Below are positions 2,146 to 54,892 of a DNA stretch of 64,000 nt, one piece after another. Positions within the stretch are counted from its first letter, which is position 1, and every line of letters begins with the position of its first letter. The notes beneath the pieces were generated by a model, which worked only from the letters and a program-made list of their open reading frames with translations, was not told the origin of the DNA and made no database searches. The DNA is from an uncultured bacterium (GTDB lineage: Bacteria > Armatimonadota > Abditibacteriia > Abditibacteriales > Abditibacteriaceae): contig CAWJLW010000006.1 in assembly GCA_963843795.1 (NCBI GenBank), positions 2,294,001-2,358,000 on the forward strand. The letters are read 5' to 3'. The position numbers and the translations under genes are program-made.

Positions 2146-2949
2146 TCAATTCGCGAAAATTTCATCAAAGAAATTTTTCATCGCTTCCCATGAACGTTTA
2201 TCGGCCTGCGCGTTATAAGCCGCGCCTTTACTCGGATCGTCGCCCGCTCGCGGATCGGTAAATGCGTGAACCGCGCCGCCGTAAGCATTGATCTGGTAAT
2301 TTACTTTCGCATCGCGCATTTCTTTTTGAAACGCCGCGACCTGTTCGTTAGGCACGCTTGGGTCTTCGGCGCCGTGCAGCACCAAAACTTTGCCTTTGAT
2401 ATTCTTGGCGTCATCGGGATTGGGCGTATCCAAATTACCATGAAACGGCGCTGTGCCAACGACATTCGCGCCCGAACGCGCCAGTTCTAAGGCCACGCCG
2501 CCGCCGAAACAGTAACCGATTGCCGCAATTTTACTGGCATCGACGTTCGGATTATCGGCAAGTACTTGCAGGCCCGCAGCGGCGCGCTGGCGCATCAGTT
2601 CGCGATTGGCGCGATATTTTCCGGCTTGCTCTCCGGCTTCTTGGCGATTGGTTGGGCGCACCCCTTTGCCATAAATATCAGCGGCGAACGCGATATAGCC
2701 CAGCGCCGCCAATTCGCGCGCGCGACGCTGTTCGTATTCGCTCAAACCCATCCACGCATGTACCACCAGAACGCCGGGACGCTTGCCCCCAATCGCATCG
2801 TCGTAAGCCAGATAACCTTCCAAAACAGTGTTGCCCTGTTTATATTCGACCAGCCGTTCTTGAATTGTTGCGTGTGCAGATTTGCTCAACACATTCGCGC
2901 TCAAACTCATCACAGCAGCGATGCCCAGAGCGGCCATTTGATTTTTCAT
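2146..2949 (-). CDS. Dienelactone hydrolase family protein with signal peptide
   Basis: G-Y-C-F-G-G nucleophile elbow, HGAED and AVHAF motifs, N-terminal signal-like segment. Confidence 0.92.
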   Translation of the reverse strand: MKNQMAALGIAAVMSLSANVLSKSAHATIQERLVEYKQGNTVLEGYLAYDDAIGGKRPGVLVVHAWMGLSEYEQRRARELAALGYIAFAADIYGKGVRPTNRQEAGEQAGKYRANRELMRQRAAAGLQVLADNPNVDASKIAAIGYCFGGGVALELARSGANVVGTAPFHGNLDTPNPDDAKNIKGKVLVLHGAEDPSVPNEQVAAFQKEMRDAKVNYQINAYGGAVHAFTDPRAGDDPSKGAAYNAQADKRSWEAMKNFFDEIFAN

Positions 2950-3001
2950 ATTTTTCCTTTAATTTCACGTTGCAAGTACTTGCAGCACATTCCTAACAGT
3001 T

Positions 3002-3982
3002 TTACGGCGCGATTTGCCACAACGGAGCGGGCGTGCCTTCGCTCGACAGCCACAAACATTTGCTATCCAAATTCCACGCTACGCTTTCGCATTGTTTGAG
3101 CGCAGGCAGCTTTTGAATTTGCGGAGTTTGCGTCCACAGCGCTGACCAATCGTCACCCAATTTCCAAACCTGCGCTTGGTTGTAGGTGATGATAGCGGCG
3201 TGCGTGCCATCCGGCGACAAATCGCCGCCCGTCGTGAGCGTTGCGCCCGCGCTGCGTTGGCCGGGTTGGGTCGAACCAAACTGACGCGCGCCCAACAGTT
3301 TCACGGTTTGCGTTGTGCCATTTTCAAATGCTCGCGGAGGCGCAAAAAACTGCGATTTGCCTCCAGTTTTCGTGACCAGCAACAGTTCGCCGCGCGCATT
3401 GGCCATCAAAGTTTCGGCGTTATGAGGCGCGTCGGGATAACGCACCATCATGCTTTGCGCTTTTAAATTCAGTTCGATAGTTTGTTTTAATTGGAGATTG
3501 ATTTTAGGTTCGTTCAAGCGGTAAATCGTGACGAAAGGCCGCAATTCCAAATTATCGCCGATGTCGCCGATATAAATTTGCGCCTTATCGCCACTGCCAG
3601 CAACCGCAATATCTTCCCAATCCAGCGCCATCGCATTTGTCAAATTCACAATCGCCGCCACGCGCCCAGTTTGCGCTTCAATCAAAAACAAGCGCGCCTT
3701 ATCGCCCGAATCGTTATGCGCCCACAAGAATCCCGGATAACGCCGACTGCTCGCCAAACCCGAAATTTCATCACAGCGTTTGTCAGTAATATCGGCAACG
3801 TGGCGCGGCAAATCTTCAACCGCAACGGTTGGCACGATTGCTGGCGCTGTCGTTTTCGCGGCAGATTTGGGCGCCGAAGGCAAGGTGTCGGCTTTGGGCG
3901 CCGAAGGCAAAGTGTCGGCGCACGAAAATGATGCGCTGAGGAAAAGCGGCAAAAGCCATAATGAAAACTCGAATCGTTTCAT
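3002..3982 (-). CDS. Secreted putative beta-propeller protein
   Basis: Signal-like N-terminus and EISGLASS/WAHNDSG/DWEDIA/GDIGDN/NAETL motifs of a conserved hypothetical family; start set at MKRFEF. Confidence 0.7.
   Translation of the reverse strand: MKRFEFSLWLLPLFLSASFSCADTLPSAPKADTLPSAPKSAAKTTAPAIVPTVAVEDLPRHVADITDKRCDEISGLASSRRYPGFLWAHNDSGDKARLFLIEAQTGRVAAIVNLTNAMALDWEDIAVAGSGDKAQIYIGDIGDNLELRPFVTIYRLNEPKINLQLKQTIELNLKAQSMMVRYPDAPHNAETLMANARGELLLVTKTGGKSQFFAPPRAFENGTTQTVKLLGARQFGSTQPGQRSAGATLTTGGDLSPDGTHAAIITYNQAQVWKLGDDWSALWTQTPQIQKLPALKQCESVAWNLDSKCLWLSSEGTPAPLWQIAP
3866..3919 (-). repeat. 27-bp tandem duplication encoding ADTLPSAPK twice
   Basis: tttgggcgccgaaggcaaggtgtcggc followed by tttgggcgccgaaggcaaagtgtcggc (1 mismatch). 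Confidence 0.9.
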
Positions 3983-4215
3983 GACTTTTAGTATGTCTGC
4001 AAATGCGAAGAAGCGGCTGCAAGTACTTGCAGCGCGCTCTAGCCGACAAAATTGATAAAATATGAAGCGCAACGTTCGATTGAGCGTTGCGCTTTCGTTA
4101 TTCGCATTTGGTCATCAATTCGTTGTCACATTGTGACTTTTTGTGTTCCTCGCCGTTTTCGTTTAGCTGTTTTCAGCTTCCGATCAGCCATTATTTTGTT
4201 CTCATGGGAGAAACC

Positions 4216-7200
4216 ATGCAGTTGCGCTTTGCCGCTTTGTTGGCGGCTTTTTTGTCCGTGTCCACTTCGTATGTCGCGCGGGCGCAAACCAAGCCCAAAA
4301 ACCCCGTTCCTTTAGAAAACCGCGCCGAAGCGCAAAGCATTGTCAAACAATTGCTCCAAGAAGGCCGCATTATCGACCCGAAAACCGTGAAACGCGGAAT
4401 GCGTGGCGTGGCCAAAAGCGTGTTTCAGGGCACCAAAATCGAAGAATTTCCCATCGAAGTGCTGGGCAATTTATCGAACGCTAACGGCGGCGGCGACATC
4501 ATTCTCATCAAAGTGCTGGGCGGCCCGGTCGTTAAGCGCCAATCGGGCATTATTGCGGGCATGAGCGGCAGTCCGGTTTATATCAACGGCAAAATGCTGG
4601 GCGCGATTGCGCTGGGTTGGGGCTTTCCCAAAGAACCTATCGGCGGAGTTACACCCGTCACGCAGATGATCGAATCTGCTCTACCCAACAGCCCGAATTC
4701 TAAACCCAAAACTGCCGCAACATTCACTGCTCCCAAAATTGCAGGCATTAACGGAACCAGTTTCAGCGATTCTTACAAGCCGGATCTACCGCTGAAATTA
4801 GCGGGCAAAAGTATCGCGCGCGTGGAAATTTCGCGCGACAAAAAGCGTCTGGCGCTACGCGGACCGGATGATAATGCGACGATGACCATGCGACCGGTTT
4901 CGACATTATTGCAGTTGAACGGTTTTTCCGAGGCGTCATTGCCGCGTTTACAAAAATTGTTCGAACCGTATGGCGTCGAGCCTGTTTTGGGCATTCCGTC
5001 CAAGAAAACCGGCGTCAAGGCGAATTTGGAACCGGGCGCGGCGATTGGCGTGCAGTTGGTTTCGGGCGATATGGATCAAACTGCGGTCGGCACGGTTACG
5101 TTTCGCTGGGGGCGGCGCTTGTTAGCTTTTGGTCACCCGATGTTTGGTCAGGGCACGGCAAGTTTGCCGATGACGACGAGCTATATTCACGAGATTTTTC
5201 CATCTTATCAGCGCTCCTTCAAATTGGCTTCACCAATTGATACCGTAGGCGCGCTACAACAGGACACGCAGTTCGCGATTGGCGGTACGGTCGGCAGCAA
5301 GGCCGATACGATTCCGATGTCGATTGCGATTCAGCAGCCGGATCGTCAGATCGCCAAAACTTATCATGTGCGCGTGATGAAAGATCCGATTCTCACGCCG
5401 CAGCTATTGGCGAGCGTGGCGGGCGAAGCGATTGAAACCACTTTGGGTCAGAGCAGCGACAAAATGGTGAACGTCGGTCTGAGCATGAAAATCGACGGCG
5501 CGCAAACCGTCAAGCGTCATAATCTGATGTATGCTCAGGGCGCAATTACCGGTGCGGCGCTGAATGATTTGCTGCAAACGCTGTCGCTTTCACAATCGAA
5601 CGAATGGACGCGTGGCAGCATTTCTCGTGTCGATCTGACAGTTTTAGTCGAACCCAAACGCCGCACCGCGACCATTAAAACCATCACCGCCGACCGGAAC
5701 AAAGTCAAAGCAGGCGAAACGGTTGGTGTACGCGTCGATCTGGAGCCGACCGATGCGCCGGGCCAGATTATCTCCAAGAATTTTCAGTTCACCGTGCCTG
5801 CAGACGCACCCAATGGCGTTTTGAGAATTGGCGCGAGCCTGGCAGCCAATTATTGGAATATGCAAGTGCGCGTTGGCGGCGCACCGCCCGACCCGACCAA
5901 CCTGCCGCAGTTATTGCAAGCGTGGGATAAAGTTGGGCCGATGAACGAACTGTTAGTTGTCGCTTCGACGCCGCGCCGCTATCTCAAAGTGGGTCAGCGA
6001 AAAATCGAAGACGTGCCGCCGACGTTTGCGACTTTGATGAAAACTGCGCCGATTAGCGAAGTCGGTTTGTATAACGAAGTCGAAGTGCGGCGCGAAGACA
6101 CCGATTTCATGCTCGATGGCACGCAGCTTTTGCTGTTGCCAGTAACCAGCGCGCGCCAACCCGACAGTTCAACCACGCCAGCCAACGAAAATCCGGTCGC
6201 GGTGCCACCCAGCGATGCACTGCCCGGAGGCGAAGTTTCAACCCAAGCGCCCGAAGTTCCAGGCGCGGTCGATCCCGGCGATGGCACACCCGATCCCGGC
6301 GGCCCCAATGACCCGAACAACGATCCCGGCGATGACAACGATGTCATGTCGCAGAACGCGATGTTTGCCAGTTGGCGCGCGGACGCAGACAACAGTTTTG
6401 TTCCAAAATCGGCGCGTTTTATCAGCCAAATTAAAGCTCTGCAGGCGCAAAGTCAGCAGGCACAAATGTGGCAGCGGCGCGTGCAAGTACTTGCAGCGCG
6501 CGGCGCGGGCGCGTTGGACGTGCGCACCGTTCTAAGCGAACGCAATCAATTGAAAATGCGCGCCACTAAAACGAAGAACAATGCAGAAGTCGATTCCGAG
6601 CCGCAGCAAATTTTGAATCCGACGCCGACGCCAATTCCCACGCCGACCAAAGCTCCTGCTGCGCCGGGCGTTGGCCCGTTGCAAACCCCAACGCCTTCAG
6701 CGACTGCGACCGCTACGCCCATTCCCACGCCGAGCAGCAAAACGCTGGCGCGCCCGTCTCAATCTTGGGTGCAAACACCTACCGATTTTTTGCGCGGCCA
6801 GTTCGATGGCTCGCAGGTTTCGAGCGCGGGCCGTTTGCAAATCGCGCCCGCTTCGAAGTTGCTTATTAAAACGTCGGAACCTTTCGTATGGAGCGTAACC
6901 GCCGACACCAAGGGCAACACGTTTTTGGCGCTCACCAATCCGGCGCGCATCGTGAAAATTGCGCCCGATGGCGCTTCGACGACCTTATGGCGCGGCGATG
7001 ACCTGGCGGTTTCAGCCATGACCAGCGACAAAGCTGGCAACATTTACGCGGGCCTGACGCCTTCGGGCAATGTGCTGCGCATCGCTCCCGATGGTAGCGC
7101 GATTTCCATTCTAAACACGCGCCAAAGTTTTGTGGGCGCGCTGGAGTGGGATGCAAAAAATCGTTTGTTAATCGGGAGCGGCGGAACAGAAGGCAAACTT

Positions 7201-9018
7201 TTCCGCCTTGATGATCCGCAGAGCGCTGGTGCGATGCAGGCTGGCAACCGCACACCGTTTGTGACCGTGCCGCAGAAGCAGGTGCGTTCGATCGCCGCGC
7301 GCGGTGAGGATATTTTCCTCGGCACTGGCGGCGAAGCGGTGCTTTATCGGATTGATGCATCAGGCAAAACGCAAGCGCTGTATCAGATAGGTGACCGCGC
7401 CAAAGACACTTCGGGCATCGAAATTTTAGGCGTGGCCGCAACAGAAAACGGTATTTTCTTCGGCGCTTCGGATAGCGGAACCATTTATCGCTGGACGGAG
7501 GCAGAAGGCGCCTCAGCGTTTTATCCTTCGCCCCAGCAACGCATTTTCGCGCTGCGCGCCGCGCCCAGCGGCAAGTTCTACGTCGCGACCGGCGATAAAG
7601 GCGTTGTTTATGAAATTGATCCGGGTCGCACCGCAGGCGAAAGCAAAGCCGCGCGACTTCTGGAACCGCCGCCCACGCAATCGCTCGCGCTCGACATTGC
7701 GCCCGACGGCTCGCTTCTGGTCGGAACGGGCAACGTGGGCAGCGTGTATCGCGTCGCACTGAAAGACGAACAAAAGGGCGCTTTCACTTCCACGGTTTTT
7801 GATGCCAAAAGTGTGGTTCAATGGGGCGCGTTGCGCGAAATCGGACGCGACGTTTCCATCGAAACGCGTTCGGGCAACACACTCGATCCGGGCGCGGAAT
7901 GGAGCGACTGGCAAGCAGTTAGCGCCGGTGGTGCGAACCAGTTCAAAGTTGTTTCACCGCCCGCACGTTATCTACAATATCGTGCTGAATTGAAGCCCAA
8001 TGGCAAAGCCAACGACGAAGACAACGCGGCGAGCCTTTCGCGCGTCGAAGTAGTTTATCGCGCCAAAAACAGCGCGCCTGTGGTAGCGATGGCACTGCCC
8101 AAAGGCGGCGAATTCTGGAGCGGCAAAGAAAAATTGGTGTGGGCCGGACAAGATCCCGATAACGACACGCTACGCTATAAACTGTGGCTTTCGAGCGATG
8201 ATGGCGCGACATGGAAAAGCGTCAAGATGAATAAAACCACCGACACCAACTTTGAACTTGATACCACACAGTATCCCGATGGCACTTATCGCGCGAAGCT
8301 CGAAGGCAGCGATGCGGCGCGCAATCCCGACGATCCCCAAAGCGACCAGACTATTTCCCTTCCCTTCGTCATCGACAACGGCACGCCCAAAATCAGCGAT
8401 ACAAATTTGGTTGCCACCGACGACGGTTGGAAACTGAGCGCCGTCGCCTCCAACAATTTGTCGCCCATCGCTGGCGCAGTGTGGCGCTGGAAACCAATCG
8501 ATGAAGACGAAAAAAATGATGGCAGCGGAAAAGATGATGAGAAAGGCGACGTGAAATCGGATTCTGACGAGGCCAGCAAAGTTGAAGCTGCCAAAGTCGA
8601 TGATGCTAAAATCGAAGTCGCCAAAACGGCAACTGCTAAGCTAGCCGGAAACAAGACAGTTGTTAAAGCCGCAGACAACAAAGCACCTGGCCAAAAAGCA
8701 GATGTAGCGACTCCCAAATCGAACGAAGCCAAGCCAGTCGAAAATAAAACAATTGAAACAAAACCGACTGAAACAAAACCGACTGAAACCAAGCCGGTCG
8801 AAGCCAAAAAGGTAGAACCAAAGACCGTCAAGAAGGAAGACGACGAAGATTGGAACGCCCTGATCGCAGCCGATGGTTTGTTCGATAGCTTGCGCGAAGT
8901 CATTATGGGCATTGTAACGCGCGACGATGCGCCAAAAGAAAAGAACGAGCAGCAAATTGAAATTCGCGTACAAAGCGCTTCAGGAAAAACCCAGACCATA
9001 ACAATTCCAGTTCCCTGA
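4216..9018 (+). CDS. Large secreted SpoIVB-type peptidase S55 domain protein with C-terminal beta-propeller and Ig-like regions
   Basis: GIIAGMSGSPVYINGKMLGA (S55 motif), AFGHPMF, Pro/Thr-rich linkers, repeated propeller blades, Lys/Glu-rich insert near the end; GGAG upstream of ATG 4216. Confidence 0.85.
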   Translation: MQLRFAALLAAFLSVSTSYVARAQTKPKNPVPLENRAEAQSIVKQLLQEGRIIDPKTVKRGMRGVAKSVFQGTKIEEFPIEVLGNLSNANGGGDIILIKVLGGPVVKRQSGIIAGMSGSPVYINGKMLGAIALGWGFPKEPIGGVTPVTQMIESALPNSPNSKPKTAATFTAPKIAGINGTSFSDSYKPDLPLKLAGKSIARVEISRDKKRLALRGPDDNATMTMRPVSTLLQLNGFSEASLPRLQKLFEPYGVEPVLGIPSKKTGVKANLEPGAAIGVQLVSGDMDQTAVGTVTFRWGRRLLAFGHPMFGQGTASLPMTTSYIHEIFPSYQRSFKLASPIDTVGALQQDTQFAIGGTVGSKADTIPMSIAIQQPDRQIAKTYHVRVMKDPILTPQLLASVAGEAIETTLGQSSDKMVNVGLSMKIDGAQTVKRHNLMYAQGAITGAALNDLLQTLSLSQSNEWTRGSISRVDLTVLVEPKRRTATIKTITADRNKVKAGETVGVRVDLEPTDAPGQIISKNFQFTVPADAPNGVLRIGASLAANYWNMQVRVGGAPPDPTNLPQLLQAWDKVGPMNELLVVASTPRRYLKVGQRKIEDVPPTFATLMKTAPISEVGLYNEVEVRREDTDFMLDGTQLLLLPVTSARQPDSSTTPANENPVAVPPSDALPGGEVSTQAPEVPGAVDPGDGTPDPGGPNDPNNDPGDDNDVMSQNAMFASWRADADNSFVPKSARFISQIKALQAQSQQAQMWQRRVQVLAARGAGALDVRTVLSERNQLKMRATKTKNNAEVDSEPQQILNPTPTPIPTPTKAPAAPGVGPLQTPTPSATATATPIPTPSSKTLARPSQSWVQTPTDFLRGQFDGSQVSSAGRLQIAPASKLLIKTSEPFVWSVTADTKGNTFLALTNPARIVKIAPDGASTTLWRGDDLAVSAMTSDKAGNIYAGLTPSGNVLRIAPDGSAISILNTRQSFVGALEWDAKNRLLIGSGGTEGKLFRLDDPQSAGAMQAGNRTPFVTVPQKQVRSIAARGEDIFLGTGGEAVLYRIDASGKTQALYQIGDRAKDTSGIEILGVAATENGIFFGASDSGTIYRWTEAEGASAFYPSPQQRIFALRAAPSGKFYVATGDKGVVYEIDPGRTAGESKAARLLEPPPTQSLALDIAPDGSLLVGTGNVGSVYRVALKDEQKGAFTSTVFDAKSVVQWGALREIGRDVSIETRSGNTLDPGAEWSDWQAVSAGGANQFKVVSPPARYLQYRAELKPNGKANDEDNAASLSRVEVVYRAKNSAPVVAMALPKGGEFWSGKEKLVWAGQDPDNDTLRYKLWLSSDDGATWKSVKMNKTTDTNFELDTTQYPDGTYRAKLEGSDAARNPDDPQSDQTISLPFVIDNGTPKISDTNLVATDDGWKLSAVASNNLSPIAGAVWRWKPIDEDEKNDGSGKDDEKGDVKSDSDEASKVEAAKVDDAKIEVAKTATAKLAGNKTVVKAADNKAPGQKADVATPKSNEAKPVENKTIETKPTETKPTETKPVEAKKVEPKTVKKEDDEDWNALIAADGLFDSLREVIMGIVTRDDAPKEKNEQQIEIRVQSASGKTQTITIPVP

Positions 9019-9022
9019 ACCT

Positions 9023-9068
9023 TTAGCAAACGACCCGGTGCACAGTTGTGCACCGGGTCGTTTGCTAA
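9023..9068 (+). terminator. Long hairpin with 22-bp arms; intrinsic terminator candidate
   Basis: TTAGCAAACGACCCGGTGCACA-GT-TGTGCACCGGGTCGTTTGCTAA directly after the stop at 9018. Confidence 0.75.
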
Positions 9069-9416
9069 GTGCTTATCACGTTGGCAAGTACTTGCTAACG
9101 TGCGTTAATGATTTTCAAAAGTACAAAAGGCTACAATCGCCTGAATTCTGCGCAATAAAAGCCGGCATAAAATTGTCGTGAAGGTCGTTTTTATCAAAAG
9201 AGGCTCTTTGTGGCTTGGCTGCCACAATCAATTATCAAGCGACGCCGGACCACTTCTTGCAATAAATAACGCGGCTTACAATGAAGCCAATATTCGCCTG
9301 CGAATCACTTCTGCACAGTGTTGCTTGAATTCTTGCTCATTTATCTGTAAGCGTCTTTATCTGCTTCTCTTCCTGCTCCTGTCGCACCTTATAGTTTCGA
9401 AACTGGGCGCTACTGG

Positions 9417-11391
9417 ATGAACTCGATTTTGAAATATGGGCGTGCTACGAAAAATCGATTTCGGAGTTATTTTATGGTGCGTGTTCTACAATCATCGCGC
9501 TCACTTTATTGGGTACCCGCCAGCTTCATTTTGCTTCTTGCGTTAATCTACGCGTTCAGCGCGCGCATTTTGCTCAGTGGTTTTTATCAGGTGGAAGAAA
9601 CCAATGCCCTGACTAACGGAGTGCGACTTCAAAATACGCTGGACAATGCGGTTGCTTCTCTCGATACCACGGCTTTATCTTGGGCGCATTGGGATCAGGC
9701 GCTGAATTTCCTTGAAGACCCCAATAACCCTTCGAACCAAGAATTTGTGAAAAGTGAACTCACTACCGAATCTTTGGTACCCACACAAAGCCATGCGGCG
9801 GCTTATATAGATTCGCGTGGCCGCATCTTATACGCAACAGGATTAGATTTCAAGACGTTGAAAACCAAGCCTTTTCCGCCAGAGCTGCGCGCTCAATTGA
9901 AGCCAGGCAGCCCACTCTTGAAATTGCCTACTCCCAGTAGTTTTGTGCGCGGTTTAGTGCAGATACCCGAAGGCATTCTATTGGTAGCAGTCCGTCCTGT
10001 TACCAACTCTAAAGGCACCGGAAAAATTGGCGGCGCCTTTTTATTGGCGCGCTTTATCGACGCGGATTTGATTCAGCAGATGTCCGCTCAAGTTCAATTA
10101 CCAATTTCTTTGCACGCGATTTCCGATCATATGCCATCTGATTTTCGAATGGCTAATCAGAAAATCCAAGAACAGAAAGACAATACGAGCTTTCGCCTTC
10201 CCCTGAACTCCGATGTCAACGTCGTTTTTGTACGTTCGCCCGATATTTATGGACGGCCAGTGCTATTGTCTCGTATGGAAACACCCCGCAACGTATACCA
10301 GCAAGGTTTGGCCAGCTTGCGCACACTGGTAATTACCATGCTCGTAATCGGCAGTATTTCTGGCCTTGCGTTATTTTTGACGCAGCGCTCGCTCGAGCGA
10401 GCGCGAAACGAACAACGCGAACACGACGCTTTGTATCGCTCGTTAACACTCAATTCCAGCGACGTCTTATTTGCGCTCGATTCAAAAGAAAATATGCTTT
10501 GGTTCGGCGATACACAAAGATTCTTCGGAGTAGAAGAGCCAAGCGAAAACAATCTCGAGTACATGGCTGCAACGCTTACATCCCGATGACCGCGAAATTT
10601 GTGCAGCAGTTTTACGTAATCTCGAACCGGGAAATTTTTCCGGCGAATACCGCTTAATGCGCGATGACGAGACCGTTTACATACTGCTGCGCGGAAAAAT
10701 TTTATCCGGTAAAAATGTGACGGCGCAACGTGGGGAATTCCGGATCGTGGGTGCAGCAACCGATATCACAGCGCGTAAAAAAAGTGAGCTGGAAAAAGAA
10801 GTCTTACTCAAAGAAATTCATCATCGTGTCAAAAATAATATGCAAGTCATTTCTTCGATGCTCAATTTGCAATCATCCTATCTGACCGACCCCAACTTGC
10901 GCGCAACTTTTCAAGACTCACAAAACCGCATCAAAAGCATGGCTCTCATCCACGAGCGTTTATACGGGCAAAACGACTTTGCCCTCATCGATTTCGCAGG
11001 TTACCTCGAGCAATTGACGCGCAGCTTGGTTCGCACTTATCGTACTGGACAAGTCGAATTGTCACTCGATCTTCAATCCGTCGAACTTGATGTGGACCGC
11101 GCAGTCCCCTGCGGGCTGATCGTTAACGAGTTGGTGTCAAACGCCTTGAAACACGCTTTCCCAACCAATAAAGGAAATTTACACGTCAGTTTAAAATATG
11201 ATAATCAAAACATTGTTCTGGGCGTGGAAGACGATGGCATCGGTTTTCCTCAAGACCTCGATTTCCGTGATTGCGATTCTTTGGGCTTGCAATTGGTCGA
11301 CGATTTCAGCGCACAAATCGGTGGCAAAGTCATTTTAGAACGCACAGTGCCCGGAACGCGTTGGAACGTGGTTTTCCCTGAAAAAAGATAA
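9417..11391 (+). pseudogene. CHASE4-PAS-HisKA_2 sensor histidine kinase split by an apparent +1 frameshift (real or sequencing error)
   Basis: 5' ORF has two TM helices flanking a CHASE4-like region (WAHWD). The downstream frame opens after 10533 and reads WLQRLHPDDR (PAS_3), then LLKEIHHRVKNNMQVISS and an HATPase with DDGIG. Confidence 0.8.
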
Positions 11392-11494
11392 TTTTTGTGA
11401 GTGGCAAGTACTTGCTACTCAATTTGCACCTGCAGTTGCTGGAACCAAAATAATACTATGATGCCTGGTATTTTTAAGGCATAACCAAATAGAT

Positions 11495-13714: not shown

Positions 13715-13813
13715 TATGCCTTGCAAGTACTTGCAGCGACTTGCAGGGCGCCTGTAGTGATTGCTATAATGGTCTGTGTTCGGACGGGTAACCGAATAGA
13801 TTTCCGCCCTTCA

Positions 13814-13885
13814 GGGCGATTAACTCAGCGGGAGAGTGCTACCTTCACACGGTAGAAGTCGCTGGTTCGATCCCAGCATCGCCCA
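13814..13885 (+). tRNA. tRNA-Val (CAC), CCA not encoded
   Basis: GGGCGAT TAACTCAGCGGGAGAGT G CTACC TT-CAC-AC GGTAG AAGTC GCTGG TTCGATC CCAGC ATCGCCC A. Confidence 0.95.
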
Positions 13886-13888
13886 TCG

Positions 13889-13924
13889 AAAACGCGCCCT
13901 GCAAGTACTTGCAGGGCGCGTTTT
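13889..13924. terminator. 36-bp perfect palindrome on the motif; terminator candidate after tRNA-Val
   Basis: AAAACGCGCCCTGCAAGT|ACTTGCAGGGCGCGTTTT. Confidence 0.7.
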
Positions 13925-13959
13925 GCCTTTAACATCGCAAGTGACAGTGAGAAAAAGTT

Positions 13960-14694: not shown

Positions 14695-14711
14695 GGCTCC
14701 CTGCACACTTG

Positions 14712-14743
14712 AAAGCGCGTGGCAAGTACTTGCCACGCGCTTT
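14712..14743. terminator. 32-bp perfect palindrome between convergent genes
   Basis: AAAGCGCGTGGCAAGT|ACTTGCCACGCGCTTT followed by a T-run. Confidence 0.7.
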
Positions 14744-14749
14744 TTTGCG

Positions 14750-37633: not shown

Positions 37634-37641
37634 AGTCCTTC

Positions 37642-41326: not shown

Positions 41327-41387
41327 ACAGCTGAAAGCGCCCTGCAGGGACTTGCGCAAGTACTTGCAGGGCGCTTTTATGAAAGCT

Positions 41388-41957: not shown

Positions 41958-41966
41958 CCTTTGCTG

Positions 41967-42545: not shown

Positions 42546-42662
42546 AATTATTTTCACTTCTCATCCGCATTAAAGCAGACTCTGTTATTTTATCGCAAAT
42601 TATTGATAATATCAATAATAGTTGTTCGCAAGTACCTGCCATAAGTTTTTCGCTTATTTTTT

Positions 42663-46069: not shown

Positions 46070-46140
46070 GCTGTAACCGTGACTTTTCCGAGCGCAGAAA
46101 ATTCAAATCGAATTTTCATTCTCCTGATAAAAGTTCAATT

Positions 46141-46174
46141 AAACGTGCCCTGCAAGTACTTGCGGGGCACGTTT
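46141..46174 (+). terminator. Motif-centred hairpin followed by a T-run
   Basis: AAACGTGCCCTGCAAGT|ACTTGCGGGGCACGTTT(TTT), one U.G wobble. Confidence 0.65.
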
Positions 46175-46235
46175 TTTGTCTCCTATTCGTTGCAAGTACT
46201 TGCCATACTGTTTTGCGTCGAATTTTTGATTTCTC

Positions 46236-48812
46236 GTGACACCGATTTCTTCCGCCACTTCTTCTCCGCCCGCGCATTTTGCGGGCGGTGGTTTTTTACG
46301 CCATCGTGGGGGCGACATCATCAAAGGGCGTTACCGCGTTTTGGAGCCGCTGGGCGGCGGCAGTTTCGGCACGGTGTATCGCGTTTTGGATCAAGCCGTC
46401 GGTGTCGAATTGGCGTGCAAAGAAATGCACGTTTTAGACGATGTGCGCACGCCCAACAACGAGCGCGCGACGGCTTTAGAATGGTTCAAGCGCGAAGCGT
46501 TGAATTTGGCCACGGTGCGCCATCCGCACATTCCCGCCGCTTATTTCGAGCAGGAAGACGGTGCGTGGCGCGTTTGTCCGCAGTGCGGATTAGATTTTCC
46601 CGATTCCCAGTTTTGTCCCGATCACGGCGCGCCCTTATTGCCGGTCGAGCAGCGTTTTTATCTGATGATGGATTTCATCGACGGCCCGACGCTGGAAGAA
46701 ATGGCCGTCAATGCTTTGGGCGACACCGGACGACCGCTGGACGAAAACACGGTTTTGCGTTGGATCGAACAAATCGGCGGCGCGCTGCGCGCACTGCATC
46801 GCGTCGGCATCGTGCATCGTGACATCAAGCCGGAAAATATCAAAATCCGCACGACGGATGATGCCGCCGTTTTGTTAGATTTCGGCTTGACGCGCAAAGC
46901 TGAAGAAGCGGGCGGCTACGGCACTTTGCGCCAAAGCGGAACCGGCCACATGGGTACGCCGGGCTACGCGCCGCCCGATTTAAGCGAACTGACGCATCCC
47001 GAAGCGCGCTCGGATATTTACGCGCTGGGCATGACTTTGTATCGTTTGTTGAGCGGACGCGACCCACAAATCGCCGATGAATTGGCACAAATGCGCGCTC
47101 ATCCGCCGCGTTTTTTTAACTCAATGATTTCGCCCGCGACCGAAGCCATTATCACGCGCGCCATTCAAGCCAATCGCACTCGGCGTACGCCGCAAATCGA
47201 CGATTTGCTGGACGAATTGAAAGCCTTGCGCGGCGATACCCATTCCGCCGTGACGCCGTTTATTTTCGCCGATGGCACACGCGCGCGCACGCCGCAGGAA
47301 TTGCTGCGTTTGGTCGAAGCGCGACGTGACGAAGCGGCGAATTATTTATGGAACGGCATGCTGGAACGCTGGCTTTTGAGCGCCGGTTACGCGGCGGGCG
47401 CGCAAGCCGCAGTCGATAGTCGCACGCGTTGGCCACAACACGCGCCGCGCGCGCTGGAATGGTTTCGCCGCGCCTTGCAGCCGCCGAATGCCCCCATGCC
47501 GCTACCTGAAATCGAACCCAAATCGCTCGATTTCGGAACGCTGGAAAGCGGGCAAACTCACGCATTGACGCTGCACCTCCGTTCGCGCGATGGCTATGGT
47601 TGGGGCAACTTATTCACGCTGCTGCAATCTGGCCCGCGCGACTTAAACGCGACCGACGATGCGAAGAAAGATACCGCGCCGCGCGAAGTACCGGGTTTAT
47701 CTCTCGCGCGCGAATGGGAAAATCAAAGCGAAATCCGCTGCACCCTGGACACTTCGCACCTGATGCCAGGCGATTATATGGGCGAAATCATCGTGCGTGA
47801 TGCCATCGGCAGTGCGCCCAGTGGCGCGGGCACAATTGTCGGGCGCGTGCCGCTGCGTTTTCGCGTGCGCGCCTTGAACCTGCGCGTGCAACCGGCGCAA
47901 CTGGAATTCGGCACAGTCGCCATCGGAAAAGCGGCGCGTTTGGGTGTGCGCGTTTTGAACGAAGATCACCTTTCGCGCGGAATTGTGCGCGGCGCAGTTC
48001 ATATCGCAGCGGGCGCCGGTCCAGTGAGCGCGCCGGATAATATCGAAGGCGAAAAAGTGTGGCAGGTTGAAATCGACGCGGGTCGGCCCGACGCAGTGGC
48101 GCGCCATTACGAAAGCGCGATTAACATCGATAGCAATGGCGGACGCTTGCGCGTGCCGATTCGCTATCGTATCGTGTTGCCGCCGCTGCGCATTGCGTGG
48201 CTTTTACTGTCGCACATCGCGCTATTCGCAGTGGGCGCAGGTTTGGGGCGTTTCGCTTATGCGATTATCAATCCGGCTTATGCGATGCGCTGGCTCAGCG
48301 ACAAGGGCACTCTGGACGCGCCGCAAATCGCCGGTTTTGGCGCACCGCTTTTGTTGGGTGCGTTGATTGGAGTGACGATTGAAATTTGGCGCAACACCGG
48401 CCAAGGCCATTTGTCCAACGCCGCCACGACACAGGGCTTGCAAAGCCGTTCGCAAACGCCGCGCGGACGTTTCAACCCCTTGTTGCAATCGTTGTTGCTC
48501 AGCGCAATTATCGGTGCGATTATTGGTTGGCCGCTGCTGTGGCTGGGCCACTGGCTGTTATGGGGCAGCGGCGATTGGTTGTTGCGCCCGCTCAATGGTT
48601 TGTGGATACCGCTATCGCGCGTGCTACACACGGATATTGAAACCCTCGCGCCGTTTGCGTGGGCAACGAGCGGCGGCGTATTCGGCGCACTGTGGGGCAC
48701 AGGACGCGTGCTGACGATTCTCAATCGCCCGTGGGCGCGCTACGCAGTACTGACGATTTATGGCCTCATTTTCCTAATCCTGCTGGTCGCAGCGATGCTG
48801 TTCACCGGCTGA
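46236..48812 (+). CDS. Hanks-type Ser/Thr protein kinase with zinc-ribbon insert, Ig-like region and C-terminal TM helices
   Basis: LGGGSFGTVY, ACKE, HRDIKPEN, DFG, GTPGYAPP and SDIYALG. Confidence 0.92.
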   Translation: MTPISSATSSPPAHFAGGGFLRHRGGDIIKGRYRVLEPLGGGSFGTVYRVLDQAVGVELACKEMHVLDDVRTPNNERATALEWFKREALNLATVRHPHIPAAYFEQEDGAWRVCPQCGLDFPDSQFCPDHGAPLLPVEQRFYLMMDFIDGPTLEEMAVNALGDTGRPLDENTVLRWIEQIGGALRALHRVGIVHRDIKPENIKIRTTDDAAVLLDFGLTRKAEEAGGYGTLRQSGTGHMGTPGYAPPDLSELTHPEARSDIYALGMTLYRLLSGRDPQIADELAQMRAHPPRFFNSMISPATEAIITRAIQANRTRRTPQIDDLLDELKALRGDTHSAVTPFIFADGTRARTPQELLRLVEARRDEAANYLWNGMLERWLLSAGYAAGAQAAVDSRTRWPQHAPRALEWFRRALQPPNAPMPLPEIEPKSLDFGTLESGQTHALTLHLRSRDGYGWGNLFTLLQSGPRDLNATDDAKKDTAPREVPGLSLAREWENQSEIRCTLDTSHLMPGDYMGEIIVRDAIGSAPSGAGTIVGRVPLRFRVRALNLRVQPAQLEFGTVAIGKAARLGVRVLNEDHLSRGIVRGAVHIAAGAGPVSAPDNIEGEKVWQVEIDAGRPDAVARHYESAINIDSNGGRLRVPIRYRIVLPPLRIAWLLLSHIALFAVGAGLGRFAYAIINPAYAMRWLSDKGTLDAPQIAGFGAPLLLGALIGVTIEIWRNTGQGHLSNAATTQGLQSRSQTPRGRFNPLLQSLLLSAIIGAIIGWPLLWLGHWLLWGSGDWLLRPLNGLWIPLSRVLHTDIETLAPFAWATSGGVFGALWGTGRVLTILNRPWARYAVLTIYGLIFLILLVAAMLFTG

Positions 48813-48845
48813 GAAGACACTGCAAGTACTTGCAGTGTCTTCTCA
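48810..48845. repeat. 36-bp perfect palindrome whose left arm includes the kinase stop codon
   Basis: TGAGAAGACACTGCAAGT|ACTTGCAGTGTCTTCTCA. Confidence 0.9.
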
Positions 48846-48888
48846 TTCACATTTCACACTGCAAGTACTTGCAGTAGTATTTTCCTTC

Positions 48889-50001
48889 ATGCGTTTATTG
48901 CATCTTCTCGAAGCCGCACAGGGCGGCACTCGGCGCCACGTTCTCGATTTGCTACCACGCCTGGCCCGACGCGGCTTTCAATGTGGCCTGATTTATTCGT
49001 CGCGCCGCTATCCCGCTTTCGTCCACGACGCCGCACATCTGGAAAGCCTCGGCGTAAAAACTTGGGACGTGCCCATGGCGCGCGGTTTCGATCCCATTAC
49101 TGATGCACGCGCTTTAAAAAATATCGCTGCGTGCATTAGGGAATTCGAACCCGATTTGCTGCACAGCCATTCCTCCAAAGCCGGACTTCTGGGCCGCATA
49201 GCCGCGTTTGCCCAACGTGTGCCCGCTGTTTACACACCGCATTGCATCGCCTTCGACACTCAACTGCCAATGCGCCAACGCCGCGCGGCGCGACTGGTCG
49301 AAACCATGCTCTCGCCTTTGACCGCGCATTATATCGCCGTTTCGCACGCCGAACGCCGCGCCATTGCGCGTTTGTCCAACATCGCCAAACAACGCGTCAG
49401 CGTAGTGAATAATGGAATTGATTTACCTGCGCTCGATGCACTTCTGCAAAATAATCAGCAGCAAAAAATCAACGATGGTCCGATAATCGGCTGCTTCGGA
49501 CGCTTGACGCCACAGAAAAATCAAGTCGTTCTCATTCGCGCTTTAGCAGTTTTACGACAGGAAATGCCCGCACGTTTATTATTGGTCGGCGGCGGCGAAG
49601 ACGAAGCACAGTTGCGCCGTCTGGCGTGCGTTTTGAAAATGGAACCTTTCATCGAATGGACGGGCGAATTGGAAGAAGCGCGCCCGCTTCTCAATCGGTG
49701 CGACATCGTGGCGCAGCCTTCGCGCTGGGAAGGCTGTCCATATTCGATTCTAGAAGCGATGGCCGCGCAACGCGCTCTGGTTGTTTCGCCGCTACCACCT
49801 TTGCGTGAATTGTTATCGAACGAAGAAGCGATTTTCGCGCGCGCCACGCCGTATCATTTCGCATCTGCGTGCGCCGAATTGTGGCGCGATGAAACGTGTC
49901 GCGACGAGATTGCACGTTGCGCACGCGCCCGCATCGAGCGCGATTTTCGGCTGCGCGATATGGTCGAAAAAACGACGCACGTTTATCGTGAACTTTTGTG
50001 A
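48889..50001 (+). CDS. Glycosyltransferase family 4
   Basis: HSHSSKAG, GRLTPQKN and PSRWEGCPYSILEAMA. Confidence 0.93.
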   Translation: MRLLHLLEAAQGGTRRHVLDLLPRLARRGFQCGLIYSSRRYPAFVHDAAHLESLGVKTWDVPMARGFDPITDARALKNIAACIREFEPDLLHSHSSKAGLLGRIAAFAQRVPAVYTPHCIAFDTQLPMRQRRAARLVETMLSPLTAHYIAVSHAERRAIARLSNIAKQRVSVVNNGIDLPALDALLQNNQQQKINDGPIIGCFGRLTPQKNQVVLIRALAVLRQEMPARLLLVGGGEDEAQLRRLACVLKMEPFIEWTGELEEARPLLNRCDIVAQPSRWEGCPYSILEAMAAQRALVVSPLPPLRELLSNEEAIFARATPYHFASACAELWRDETCRDEIARCARARIERDFRLRDMVEKTTHVYRELL

Positions 50002-50145
50002 TGCAGCAAGTACTTGCTGCATCACCAAGCAGATAGACAAGGTCAAATACAAAACCTGAGTCCCAACTAAAACATAAGAACTCTCGTAATATTCGGCATC
50101 GAATAGCTGATTTTTGCAGTGCGAGTATTTGCAGAATTTAATCGT

Positions 50146-52080
50146 TCAACGCGTTGCCACAACATTTTGTGGCAGCACAATTCCCTGCCCTGAAGGATGA
50201 AATTCGGGTACAAAACTCGGCACTTGGACGGCGCGCCCGGCCAGTTCGCTCATCGTGACACAGCGATAACCACGCGCGCGCAGTTCATTCAGCAAAATCG
50301 GCAACGCCTTCGCGGTTTGCGGTGCGGAATCGTGAAATAACAGTACTTGTCCCGGCGCCAAACGTTGCAGCACACGGTTGACAATTTTTTGCGGATCGGG
50401 TTGTTCCCAATCGCCGGAGTTGTTGCTGGTATCGGCGCGCACCATCTTCAAATCGTGCAGCGCGTTTAAGGCTTCGAGCGAATAATGACAACCGGGCGCG
50501 CGGAACCAGCGCGGCGCGATGCCAATCACATTTTCGATGATGCGATTGTTGCCCGCGATTTCTTCATGCCACTGCTCGGCACTTAACTTTACGCCCTGAA
50601 AATGGTGCCACGAATGATTGGCGATGTCGTGTCCTTGAGCAGCTTCCTGACGCAATAAATCGGGATGTTTTTCGACATTGCGGCCGACGACAAAAAACGT
50701 TGCGGGCACATGGAAACGGCGAAGTTGTGCCAAAATTGCTGGCGTGCCCGTGGGATGTGGGCCGTCATCGAACGTCAAGGCCACGATTTTTTCATCATCC
50801 AAACCATTGGAAAACGTTGTCCACGGAATCGCGTTTTGCACGCTGCGCAACTGCGCATAATTGTCGCGCGCCAGAGTCGCGGTCTGCTGTTGCAATAATT
50901 GCGATTGCGCATCGTCCAAACGCAAAACAGTGCGCCCATCTGCCGTGCCAGGCTTGTCAATTTGCGGCGCAATGGCGCTTGTTAAAGCGCCGCGTCCAGT
51001 TGTTGTGGTTGCATCCAACGATAATGCCGGACGACGCGTATCACGCGGCGCGCCCAGTGGCGCGGTCGCGCGCAATTCTGGCGCGAGCATAGAAGGCGCA
51101 TTTTCTATCATTGCAGCGCGCGGAAAATTGGTGACGGGTGCGGTCAAATCTTCTATGTTGATATTTTCGCTCAAAAGCGGCGGTTCTTGGGGCGCGGCGC
51201 GTTCGATATGCGGCGGCGACACAGCGCGATTTTCCATCACAACGTCGCGCGTCGGAGAAATAGACACTGCAAGTCCTTGCGGCGTGTTAGTCTCGTTGGG
51301 CGCGATACTAAGCGTGGGTGGCGGCACACGGCGCGACCAATCGTCGCGGCTCAATGCGACGTGCGAACTGGATTCAACGGGAGTTTGCGTGCGTGAAGTT
51401 TCGTCAAACGAGTTCACATTCATCGCGTGACGCGCGTCTTCGTTTTGCGGCGCGCGATTGACAATTGGCGGCGCGACAGGTAGTGGAATCGGCGCTTCGC
51501 GCATCGCCAGCGTTGTGCGTGGAGTAGCAGGAGCAGCTACCATCGGTGCAGATTGTGGCGCGGCAAGGAGTTGTTCTTGCGCTGCGGGCGCGGAAATTTG
51601 CGGAGGCGTGCGAACTGTGGCAACGGGCGCGGCAAGTACTTGCGGGCTATAGGTGTTGGGCAGGCCTTCGCGCAACAGCACAAGGCGCGCGCGCAAAATG
51701 GTTTGATCGCCCTCGTTTTGGAGCGGGCCGATGGCGATAATTTGCGCGGCGTTGCGCAAAGCGGCGAACTCCAGCGGGCGCAATTGACCATCTGGCGTCC
51801 ACATTTGCGTGGCGTCATCGGTGGCGATCAAGCGCGTGGCAGTTTCGCGCGCCGCGCCCATTTCAACTGCACCGCCTTCGGCGCGCATCACCAAAACATC
51901 GGGCTGCAAACGCAAGAGGCCGCGCTTGGAATCTAAACCGACAATCGTACCATCCAGACGCCATTCGCGCGTGCGGGCCGCCATTTCATTAGGTGTATTT
52001 TGCGCGCGCGCGGGCAGCGCCATGCACGAAATTGCAACAGGCCACAACCACAGGGCGCGCCGATTTATTTTAGCTTTCAT
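50146..52080 (-). CDS. Secreted polysaccharide deacetylase (CE4/NodB) with N-terminal beta-barrel domain and Pro-rich linker
   Basis: ALTFDDGP, NHSWHH, FRAPG and LLFHD. Confidence 0.9.
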   Translation of the reverse strand: MKAKINRRALWLWPVAISCMALPARAQNTPNEMAARTREWRLDGTIVGLDSKRGLLRLQPDVLVMRAEGGAVEMGAARETATRLIATDDATQMWTPDGQLRPLEFAALRNAAQIIAIGPLQNEGDQTILRARLVLLREGLPNTYSPQVLAAPVATVRTPPQISAPAAQEQLLAAPQSAPMVAAPATPRTTLAMREAPIPLPVAPPIVNRAPQNEDARHAMNVNSFDETSRTQTPVESSSHVALSRDDWSRRVPPPTLSIAPNETNTPQGLAVSISPTRDVVMENRAVSPPHIERAAPQEPPLLSENINIEDLTAPVTNFPRAAMIENAPSMLAPELRATAPLGAPRDTRRPALSLDATTTTGRGALTSAIAPQIDKPGTADGRTVLRLDDAQSQLLQQQTATLARDNYAQLRSVQNAIPWTTFSNGLDDEKIVALTFDDGPHPTGTPAILAQLRRFHVPATFFVVGRNVEKHPDLLRQEAAQGHDIANHSWHHFQGVKLSAEQWHEEIAGNNRIIENVIGIAPRWFRAPGCHYSLEALNALHDLKMVRADTSNNSGDWEQPDPQKIVNRVLQRLAPGQVLLFHDSAPQTAKALPILLNELRARGYRCVTMSELAGRAVQVPSFVPEFHPSGQGIVLPQNVVATR

Positions 52081-52200
52081 AAAAGTGATTTCTGGCCACG
52101 CCATTAGCAACAAGGGCGGCGCTCATCGGTCGAAGAACGCGATAAATTATCCCACAATTTGTCCTGCAGGTACTTGCAGGACACAAAAAGAGCTTTCGCT

Positions 52201-54892
52201 ATGTTTTCTCGTTTTCAAGCCTTCAAACTGTTCGCGCTGTGGTTGTGTTTAGCCACATTTTCCGCCATGAGCTATGCCCAAACCGCCGATCCGCCCGTTC
52301 GCTATTACGTCGCGCCCAACGGCAACGACCAGTGGACAGGACGCAGCGCCACGCGCAAAAACAACGATGGCCCATTTGCAACGTTAAGCCGCGCTCGTGA
52401 TGCCCTACGCGCCGACCGCGCGAACCTTTTGCTGCCGCGCGGCGCAACGGTCAGCATCGCGGGCGGCACATATTTCCTCGCCGAGCCATTGATTTTCACT
52501 TCGCAAGACAGCGGAAGCCAAAACGCGCCAATTCTGTATGCCACAGCGCGCGGACAACGCGCCATCTTCAGCGGCGGACAACGCCTCAATAATTGGAAGA
52601 AAGTTGGCGAGCGTTGGGAAACGGTACTGCCTGAAGTGCGCGCTGGGAAGTGGAATTTCATTCAATTGTGGCGTAACAACGAGCGCAAAGCGCGTCCGCG
52701 CTGGCCGGAACAAGGCTACAATTTTATCGACCATACCGTCGAACCCTCACCGCAATCCGCAGGCAAAGGCCACGACCGTTTCGGCTTCAAAACCGGCGAT
52801 GTCAAGCCGGATTTTCACAATCCTGCAGATATCGATTTTTTGATGATGCAAGTGTGGACGATGGCGCGCATGAAAGCGCAGAACATTGATTTCGAAAAGC
52901 GCGAAGTCACTTTCAGCAGCCCGACGCGCACCTTGCAGTGGTATGGCTCGTTTCCCAAAGGCAATCGCTACATTCTGGAAAACGTGCGCGAAGCCCTGGC
53001 GCCCGGCCAATGGTATCTCGACCGAAAAACGGGCGTGCTGACGTATTGGCCGCTACCCAATGAAACTCCGCAAAATTCGCAATTCATCGCACCCCGTTTG
53101 GAATCTTTAGTGGAATTTAGGGGCACAGAAGATAAGCCGATTTCGGATATTTCTCTACAAGGTTTGAGCTTTCAACATTCCAACTGGGCCACGCCCGACC
53201 AGGGCAATGCCAATATTCAAGCCGAAGTTGATATTCCTGCTGCGATTCGCGCGGTCAATGCGCAACGTATTCGGCTGCAAGATTGTGAAATTTCGCACAT
53301 CGGCCATTATGCAGTCAGCTTTGGTCGCGCCTGTCATGACAATCAACTGCTGAATTGCCGTCTGGGAGATTTGGGCGCGGGCGGCGTAAAAATTGGCGAA
53401 ACCGGCAACAGTGACGACGCGCAGAGTACTTGCCGATAAAACTCTGGTGCGCAATTGTTTAATCGCGCATTTCGGGCGTTTGCATCCGGCTGCGGTTGGT
53501 GTGTGGATCGGCCATTCGCCAAATAATACAATCGACCACAACACGATTATCGACGGTTATTACACCGGGATTTCGCCCGGTTGGAGCTGGGGTTATGGCA
53601 AAAGTGGCGCTTATCACAACACGCTGACCAACAATCACATCGCGCAAATCGGTCAGGGCGTTCTCAGCGATATGGGCGGTATTTACACTCTCGGTGTTTC
53701 GCCAGAAACCGTCTTGCGTGGCAATGTGATTCACGATGTGAACTCGTTCGATTACGGCGGCTGGGGCATTTATTTCGATGAAGGCACAACCGGTGTAATT
53801 GCGGAAAACAACCTAGTGTATCGCACCAAAAGCGCCGGTTTCCATCAGCATTACGGACGCGATAACTTGGTCAAAAATAACATTTTTATCGACGGTCACG
53901 AAGCGCAACTGATGCGTTCGCGCGAAGAAGATCATCTTTCGTTCAAAATCCAGAACAACGTTATCGTCTTCTACGACCGGCCTTTGCTGGGTTCGAACTG
54001 GAACGGCACGCGCGACAATTTTCAGCTCGATTCCAATTTGTATTGGAACACGGGCGCGGAACCGCTGAGTTTCGCGGGCAAGACGCTGGCGCAATGGCAG
54101 GAAAGCGGACAAGACAAAACTTCAGTTGTCGCCGATCCGCTGTTCGTCGATGCCGCGCACGATAACTTCAATTTGCGCCCCAATTCGCCTGCGCTGAAAA
54201 TCGGTTTCGTGCCTTTCAATTGGTCGAATGCGGGCGCGCACGATGCGAATGGCAAACTTCTCACTTTGAATTCTGTGCCGCAAACGGCGCGCGCTTTTCC
54301 GCCACCACCGCCGCCGCAACCTTACGCGGAAGATTTCGAGAGCGGAGAAATCGGCGCGAAATCGAGCTTTGTCACTAATGAAGAAAACGAAACCGCGACT
54401 GCGCGCTTGAGCACCGAACAATTTTCGCCGTTTGAAACCAGTCGCCAAAGTTTAAAATTCACCGACGAAGCGGGCCAGAAATTTACTTACAGCCCGCACG
54501 TTTACGCCGCGCCCAAACTCAGTGGCGCATTGGTTGGCCGCTTCGATATTCGCCCCGACCAAAACGCACAAATTTCGCACGAATGGCGCGACAATAAAAA
54601 TCCGTATCATACCGGCCCCGCGCTCTACATTCAGAATGACGGCGCGCTGCAAGTTGGTGGCAAAACTTTGATGACGTTGAAGGCGAAAACGTGGTATCGC
54701 TGCGAAATTCGTTACACGACCGGAACAGACAAATGGAGCCTGCAAGTACTTGCGCCCGATGGCACGCGCCAAAACTTCGATAATCTCACCTGCGACGCGA
54801 ACCTGAAAAGTTTGGATTGGTGGGGTTTCGTGTCGAACGGCACCGTCGCGTCCACATGGTTTCTGGATAACGCGCGCGTCGGCCTGCAGTGA
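52201..54892 (+). pseudogene. Secreted right-handed beta-helix protein split by an apparent +1 frameshift near 53424
   Basis: 5' part YYVAPNGND..GPFATL...LGAGGVKIGE; 3' part SDMGGIYTLG..GWGIYFDEG..HYGRDN. Removing G53424 joins them as ...DDAQVLADKT... Confidence 0.82.

Follow-up and report, generated by a model that had tools for sequence, protein, structure and literature searches.

Why is one palindromic DNA word read in frame as the same four residues, Q-V-L-A, in the genes of a hydrolase, an SMC protein and a polysaccharide deacetylase, and why does it also stand in the spacers between genes? The question is raised by a stretch of 64,000 nucleotides (hereafter the window) from an uncultured bacterium of the family Abditibacteriaceae (assembly GCA_963843795.1, contig CAWJLW010000006.1, positions 2,294,001 to 2,358,000). 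The full word is the perfect palindromic 12-mer GCAAGTACTTGC, with a weaker CTG...CAG extension outside it. Our reading, held with moderate confidence on the basis of the comparative analysis below, is that GCAAGTACTTGC is a species-specific DNA word and a probable uptake signal, which would be read on double-stranded DNA by a DNA-bending receptor. The genome under study is called G000, and other G numbers denote comparison genomes.

The word in genes and spacers

GCAAGTACTTGC occurs 2,567 times (2,563 non-overlapping) in the 4.30 Mb of G000, a density of 0.60/kb or about one copy per 1.7 kb, against 0 copies of the reversed control word. The main contig holds 47-83 copies per 100 kb, except in its first 100 kb. 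About 506 sites differ from the word by one mismatch; these fall on positions 1-6 in numbers of 110, 40, 62, 154, 60 and 80, making position 4 the most variable; in G009 the variation falls on positions 1-3, with hardly any in the core. Half-sites are paired with their other half in 5,134 of 5,687 cases. Two 26-kb regions (C6:56010-82495 and 517680-543429) are free of the word; judged by eye, they contain transposase-like, restriction-like and fragmented genes. A literature search, with subscription journals outside its coverage, returned no report of this word or of the other words of the family.

Genes were called with an in-house hexamer caller (3,429 genes, 85.6% coding, starts approximate). 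By these calls, 757 non-overlapping copies are coding, 1,800 are intergenic and 6 lie on edges, which corresponds to 0.21/kb in coding and 2.9/kb in intergenic DNA; 608 genes carry the word. The coding copies use three reading frames, giving QVLA (496), KYL (146) and ASTC (115). QVLA is the top tetrapeptide of the proteome (567 occurrences vs 38 expected), and ASTC (133 vs 4) and KYLQ (108 vs 5) are similarly in excess. The motif codons CAA-GTA-CTT encode 504 of the 567 QVLA sites, that is 89% vs the 0.4% expected from ordinary codon usage; GTA and CTT are rare codons in G000, yet they are the ones used. The refuting outcome set by the earlier note, motif usage at the level of ordinary codon choice, did not occur. 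Synonymous shuffling of codons (n=20) leaves 1-9 coding motifs in place of 757. An earlier note on the window had argued that selection or molecular drive acts on the DNA word rather than only on a terminator, and the loss of the motif on shuffling, together with the absence of arm covariation in coding copies, bears this out. Q-V-L-A arises as a by-product: of the three frames it is the one best tolerated. Peptide-level selection for QVLA was considered and rejected, as three frames are in use and orthologs carry other residues. Only 4 copies fall in the 125 genes with the best codon adaptation (0.027/kb vs 0.32 in the lowest fifth, adaptation being scored by a rough proxy derived from 55 small basic proteins), so the force on the word would be weak relative to translation selection.

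In spacers the word has a second role. In 635 inner coding copies, complementarity beyond the 12-mer is at the expected level; in spacers it lies far above that level, most of all in convergent ones, which are also the richest in copies (6.1/kb vs 2.3/kb in divergent spacers). There are 490 intergenic copies with at least 8 extra pairs and a T-run, mostly 10-40 bp 3' of stop codons. On folding, two coding copies were poor (z 0.37 and 1.89) and two intergenic copies gave z values of -8.0 and -10.7. The intergenic word is co-opted as the apex of terminator hairpins. For coding copies a hairpin or RNA role was ruled out, arm covariation being absent.

To see how the coding copies arose, G000 was compared with sequence from three relatives (G009, 800 kb; G006, 560 kb; G001, 149 kb), using best hits with at least 45% identity and at least 60% coverage (30% for G001), which gave 303, 240 and 48 ortholog pairs. 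Among 109 distinct coding sites, 82 align without a gap in a partner, and all four residues are unmatched in 4. The earlier note had asked whether orthologs have other residues without an indel or a gap; mostly it is the former, with a minority of sites carrying extra residues. Flanking identity at word sites is 45-49% vs 63-66% elsewhere, which places the sites in variable stretches. At the SMC site (30322), 25 of 25 orthologs covering the column are gap-free and have other residues there, one partial sequence ending short of the site; SMC was the only one of six window proteins aligned individually with orthologs, and its tree was a quick one. By these alignments, the coding copies were gained mostly by substitution at poorly conserved residues. 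Some sites are old, coinciding with the partner's own dialect in 6 of 61 cases for G009 (within 3 nt) and 3 of 9 for G001, where 0.28 and 0.04 are expected.

Flanks, spacing and the words of relatives

Around the word, A+T content peaks 16, 27, 37-38, 47-48 and 56-58 bp from the G of GTAC on both sides. This phasing has a period of 10.5 bp, is driven by AA/TT, and occurs in coding copies of all three frames as well as in short-armed spacer copies. At 26-60 bp its amplitude (0.025) exceeds all 100 frame-matched nulls (maximum 0.013), and beyond about 60 bp it falls to noise level. The flanks in G009 have a similar phase (r 0.67). Because A+T is helically phased on both sides, we infer a protein that would bend double-stranded DNA symmetrically round the word. 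The A/T tracts of coding copies show no left-right correlation, so a one-sided and a symmetric reader are not separated by this measure.

Spacing was assessed against 500 randomisations of the coding copies in which the intergenic ones kept their places. Coding copies lie at a median of 1,060 bp from the closest intergenic copy vs 697 ± 29 in this null, and gaps above 4 kb number 80 vs 127 ± 6; that is, spacing is evener than random. Less than 200 bp from an intergenic copy, coding density is 0.08/kb; at 2-3 kb it has risen to 0.47/kb. The first 100 bp beside a spacer hold 0.07/kb when the spacer has a copy vs 0.26/kb when it has none. G009 and G006 follow the same trend, and in G009 coding copies also repel each other (4 within-gene pairs closer than 300 bp vs 31 expected). 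As to whether spacing is set at the transcript or the DNA level, rate ratios of 0.47 and 0.50 were obtained near copies in opposite-strand gene runs, on 2 copies each, and a separate analysis gave no effect.

None of 40 relatives is enriched in the exact G000 word (0-3 copies). Abundant words of 2,100-4,400 copies are nevertheless carried by 11 of 27 family genomes, as dialects of an AGTACT-cored palindrome or as one of three directional words; the other 16 gave no clear word in samples of 9-107 kb each. RAGTACTY occurs 2,695-4,371 times in each of G000, G001, G009, G012, G015 and G019, with dialects CAAAGTACTTTG in G001, TCGAGTACTCGA in G009, G015 and G019, and a looser GAGTACTC in G012. The same octamer is scarce in 17 genomes of genera g2 and g5 (0-45 vs 60-418 for the reversed control). 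In these relatives without an AGTACT word, GTAC is often avoided too, as seen in 3-14 kb samples. The encoded peptides also differ, with RVLE/STR/EYS in G009 and VAA-type in G007.

The directional words stand both singly and in inverted pairs, some of them terminator pairs. RGTACGGTCGA of G006 (n=2,894, strands 1436/1458) was not found in the others of 121 phylum genomes sampled. Over 560 kb, 437 of its 524 copies form inverted pairs, 434 at one geometry, and the 87 single copies (42+/45-) have no replication polarity over that span of constant GC-skew sign. CAGCCACGBC reaches 2,100-2,707 copies in G007, G016 and G018, is mostly coding, is gap-free in SMC and ComEC, and has no strand bias (1232/1215 in G007). 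G020 carries CACAAAAAATGA (n=2,295, strands 1191/1104) in copies that cluster, and its sister G042 has 25.

Word-like sequences were also seen elsewhere. Seven metagenome contigs (L488-L494) carry paired copies of the word; two are close to G000 and the others have similar density without a clear match. Contigs of run X1 are identical to the window over two copies; they may be source material and give no independent support. In a viral scan of 134 loci, no clear homology to G000 was found among 20 compared by protein. A 67.8-kb phage record contains 20 copies of the 12-mer, mostly as GTGCAAGTACTTGCAC (L126, L171, L109, L114; G141, G142, G144). In the loci inspected, these copies are intergenic and directly upstream of ribosome-binding sites; the record has 38-47% G+C and one weak G000 protein match, and its copies are probably a phage regulatory element. 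At L017, ACGTAAGTCCCGC appears four times in 2.3 kb as another candidate word. G012 has a 30-fold repeat containing CCACACGTGTGG (L085-L087), likely an array of clustered regularly interspaced short palindromic repeats. In G017 (C44:100001-120000, L093) a regular array of long imperfect inverted repeats lies between small genes, with similar repeats in G006; we take it to resemble integron attC cassettes.

A probable uptake signal and its rivals

If GCAAGTACTTGC is an uptake signal, fragments carrying it would be preferentially taken up or recombined, and word-creating mutations would spread by molecular drive. A second nearby copy would add little, and spacing would then saturate near the fragment length, while codon and protein selection would steer copies towards spacers, loops and the QVLA frame. 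Symmetric curved flanks would make it easier for the DNA to double back at the word on its way into the uptake pore. We favour this type of drive because of the species-specific turnover of words, the directional words in inverted terminator pairs, the fragment-scale saturation and the weakness of the force. The word is not filed with the DNA uptake sequences (DUS) or uptake signal sequences (USS), since it is palindromic and its uptake putative.

ComEC, ComEA, DprA, secretins and pilus ATPases are present in G000. Several points, however, weigh against an uptake signal. Genomes in which no word was detected have the competence genes just as well, and the presence of a methyltransferase, ComEC, ComEA, DprA, a secretin, a pilus ATPase or MutL does not track the words. 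The pilus operon of G000 (C6:392000-406000) has several frameshifts that break up pilC, pilD and one minor pilin, and it is intact in G006; the broken operon may be an assembly error, because the neighbouring gene (g770/g771, by sequence and position presumably ftsK-like) is split too, as are 19 of 577 ortholog pairs. A charge screen of 38 prepilin-like proteins gave no clearly basic candidate for a ComP-like receptor pilin. From one dialect to another the two halves of the word change in concert, which points to a reader with two-fold symmetry, and described uptake sequences are non-palindromic (PMC2817400; this and the other papers cited, including PMC13284261 and bioRxiv 10.1101/2025.10.24.684340, are represented here by excerpts). 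The phasing extends about 60 bp to either side, beyond the span of the two AT-tracts of USS, and some of the family words are unrelated to each other, where DUS dialects have a single core in common. Saturation near 1 kb is also what Elhai's repair model predicts (PMC4390886). Coding copies in G000 do not repel each other (58 pairs closer than 300 bp vs 55 expected). Finally, some comparisons speak against pure substitution: a gap lies nearby in 28 of 113 comparisons vs about 10% expected at matched identity, and at least 3 extra residues stand at the site in G000 in 14 of 113 (12% vs about 2% background).

Symmetry and long phasing are best accounted for by a wrapping or self-marking protein. 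In this alternative, an intracellular two-fold symmetric protein would wrap about 120-140 bp and be needed every 1-2 kb, either for chromosome folding or to mark self DNA against a surveillance nuclease, and ordinary selection would maintain its sites. The AA/TT-driven phasing, alike in coding and spacer copies and similar in G009, agrees with it, as do the near-constant pairing of half-sites, the flat density along the chromosome, and the scarcity of RAGTACTY in 17 relatives, as though the core were acted upon there. But frequent swaps to unrelated and directional words among close relatives, such as G020 and its sister G042, are hard to reconcile with a housekeeping protein, and the samples of 16 family genomes show no word. 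A histone fold (PF00808) had no match in 31 genomes, and the near absence of copies from well-adapted genes suggests a weak force. On balance we consider this alternative unlikely, with a chance worth keeping in view. A bolder version, which we put forward as speculation, is a self-marking system in which a symmetric reader would wrap about 130 bp round a 12-base word roughly once per 1-2 kb, its specificity being swapped between species so often that whole proteomes would be rewritten and relatives without the system purged of the AGTACT core. If true, this would be self-marking of a kind undescribed so far.

A mechanism like that proposed for cyanobacterial HIP1 would have an orphan methyltransferase mark GTAC or AGTACT, with methyl-directed repair (or methylation-dependent transformation) ratcheting the flanks towards the full palindrome until sites stand about 1 kb apart. 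A palindrome with a GTAC core is common to seven genomes, saturation near 1 kb is what Elhai's model predicts, and G000 has MutL and one conserved solitary beta-class adenine methyltransferase (C6:2517365-2518135, L321). The enzyme, however, is 56-75% conserved in a changing neighbourhood, with full-length orthologs in 20 of 27 family genomes and two more broken, and it is found with or without a word. G000 has no C5 or D12 methyltransferase, single mismatches are not limited to the word ends, and the phased flanks and the GTAC-free words of G007 and G020 are left unexplained. We regard this route as distinctly improbable.

Still less probable, in our estimate, is that the words are hard-wired strong gyrase sites, with GTAC as the 4-base overhang and the phased arms wrapping the GyrA C-terminal domains. 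The 12-mer does fit three published preferences, -4G/+8C, -2A/+6T and +1G/+4C (PMC12324340), and the published motif is symmetric, spans 130 bp and has a period of 10.75 (PMC6379681). Convergent spacers, where copies are richest, would suit gyrase as well, and so would a single GyrA/ParC gene in five of five genomes. One such gene was seen in each of G000, G003, G006, G007 and G009, and a separate topoisomerase IV was not found in them. However, the A/T runs of the E. coli consensus, read by eye near 20, 31, 40, 51 and 62, lie 3-5 bp off the G000 peaks, and the phasing amplitude in G000 decays from the centre. The dialects of G001 and G009 violate the preference at -4 or -2, directional words cannot fit, and copies are depleted in well-adapted genes, not enriched.

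Least credible is a hairpin repeat spread by insertion, like the repetitive extragenic palindromes (REP) and their RAYT proteins, which form intergenic hairpins in hundreds of copies, or like Ssn repeats, with coding copies as stray inserts: the 490 long-armed intergenic copies, the 12% of comparisons with extra residues, the single pair geometry in G006 (434 of 437) and the clustering in G020 point that way, but most coding sites are gap-free, arms vary between copies and do not covary in coding ones, a RAYT search found nothing in G006 and a single weak Y1 fragment in G000, and no small GIY-YIG protein of the Ssn type was found in G000, G006 or G012.

The putative uptake signal would matter beyond this genome. 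In the excerpts cited here, uptake sequences are described from two proteobacterial families, and the role of HIP1 is still debated. This family would be a third lineage, in another phylum, and its palindromic and directional words, independent switches and word-free sisters are natural replicates for learning how words originate, at what pace proteomes take them in and by which protein they are read. They also illustrate that a single tetrapeptide can become the most over-represented in a proteome through a force at the DNA level. The words could serve as species barcodes for binning and as a guide for introducing DNA into these bacteria.

Copies in the window and comparison with known systems

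The window holds 40 exact copies spanning 316..62922, of which 33 are intergenic and 7 coding by our own gene calls; 14 of the 40 have arms of at least 6 extra pairs. The 10-mer core is found 42 times vs 0.02 expected from 100 shuffles. The six exact coding copies described in the earlier note lie where it had put them, in genes supported by Pfam, and all read CAA-GTA-CTT-GCN (Table 1). Its five near-copies likewise match, no QVLA is encoded otherwise among the called genes of the window, and the coding copies have 0-1 extra paired bases. Its picture of the word as Q-V-L-A holds for 6 of 6 copies here and is too narrow genome-wide, where three frames are used; 6 of 6 has a chance of about 8%. 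At the alignment column of the smc near-copy, G012 has its own dialect in a different frame. An Rfam search of the window gave two tRNAs only. The tRNA genes lie at 1972-2045 and 13814-13885, and close to each stands a hairpin copy of the word (2116 and 13901).

Table 1. Selected copies of the word and related features, in window coordinates.
Feature	Position	Strand	Encoded residues or remark
Exact word in dienelactone-hydrolase (DLH) gene 2146-2949	2558..2569	-	L-Q-V-L-A
Exact word in S55-domain gene 4204-9018	6483..6494	+	V-Q-V-L-A
Exact word in smc (28878-32459)	30322..30333	-	Residues 709-713, coiled coil
Exact word in YfhO-like gene	43382..43393	+	L-Q-V-L-A
Exact word in polysaccharide deacetylase gene	51632..51643	-	P-Q-V-L-A
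Exact word in beta-helix gene	54742..54753	+	L-Q-V-L-A
Exact word, coding status uncertain	27588..27599	+	In frame as QVLA only with a gene start 5' of the ATG near 27617
One-mismatch copy in aspS	25987..25998	+	VHVLA
Two-mismatch copy in aspS	27487..27498	+	LQVVA
Two-mismatch copy in smc	31784..31795	-	KYLQ
One-mismatch copy in YfhO-like gene	43246..43257	+	RYLQ
One-mismatch copy in deacetylase gene	51269..51280	-	QGLA
Intergenic copy, apex of perfect hairpin with T-run	13889..13924		Directly 3' of tRNA gene; terminator-like
Intergenic copy, apex of 50-bp perfect palindrome with T-runs	28253..28302		Between convergent genes; bidirectional-terminator-like
Approximate extent of 10.5-bp-phased A/T-G/C flanks round one coding copy	30262..30393		Statistical property of all copies, invisible at a single site

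How does the word compare with known systems? Polar motifs of the Chi/KOPS type are biased in orientation with replication. The G000 word, in contrast, is palindromic, and the single copies in G006 are without polarity. Intergenic hairpins in hundreds of copies recall REP/RAYT and Ssn/NTS repeats (PMC11893778), from which the word differs by in-frame coding copies gained by substitution, by even spacing and by a cognate nuclease or transposase not being found. The gyrase cleavage motif (PMC6379681, PMC12324340) is likewise symmetric over about 130 bp with a 10-11 bp G/C periodicity, and the G000 core fits it; the word is nevertheless exact rather than degenerate, its arm phase is 3-5 bp off by eye, and the G001 and G009 dialects misfit.

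The earlier note had likened the word to both uptake sequences and HIP1. HIP1, GCGATCGC (PMC4390886, PMC5861425, PMC13756078), is also a hyper-abundant palindrome, present in coding and non-coding DNA beyond protein need and saturating near one per kb, with a proposed link to transformation. The G000 word differs in its length (12-16 bp, not 8), its turnover between species of one genus, its strong preference for spacers and terminators, mismatches that are not mainly at the first and last base, and a methyltransferase that is a candidate partner only. The likeness to HIP1 thus holds less well than that to uptake sequences, the function being putative on either comparison.

With respect to USS and DUS, the differences are that the G000 word is itself a palindrome forming the hairpin apex rather than two stems, that its phasing is two-sided to about 60 bp, that one family has several unrelated words, that the phylum is different, and that receptor and uptake are putative. 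The words of G006, G007 and G020 resemble DUS/USS in being non-palindromic and equal on both strands, unlike the G000 palindrome. The commonest G006 form begins AAGTACGGT, one base off the H. influenzae core AAGTGCGGT, which is probably chance. As in USS, A/T tracts are phased, and as in DUS/USS, species dialects surround a conserved core in the AGTACT genomes, although unrelated words also occur. Shared with USS/DUS (PMC2817400, PMC3630211, PMC7811141) are a copy about every 1-2 kb, an excess over chance of hundreds-fold, a sharp consensus, frame-biased peptide enrichment, poorly conserved residues at the sites, gain by substitution, even spacing and co-option as terminators. Densities are 0.80/kb for USS and 0.89/kb for DUS (PMC2817400) vs 0.60/kb in G000, and the comparison with uptake sequences fits better than that with HIP1.

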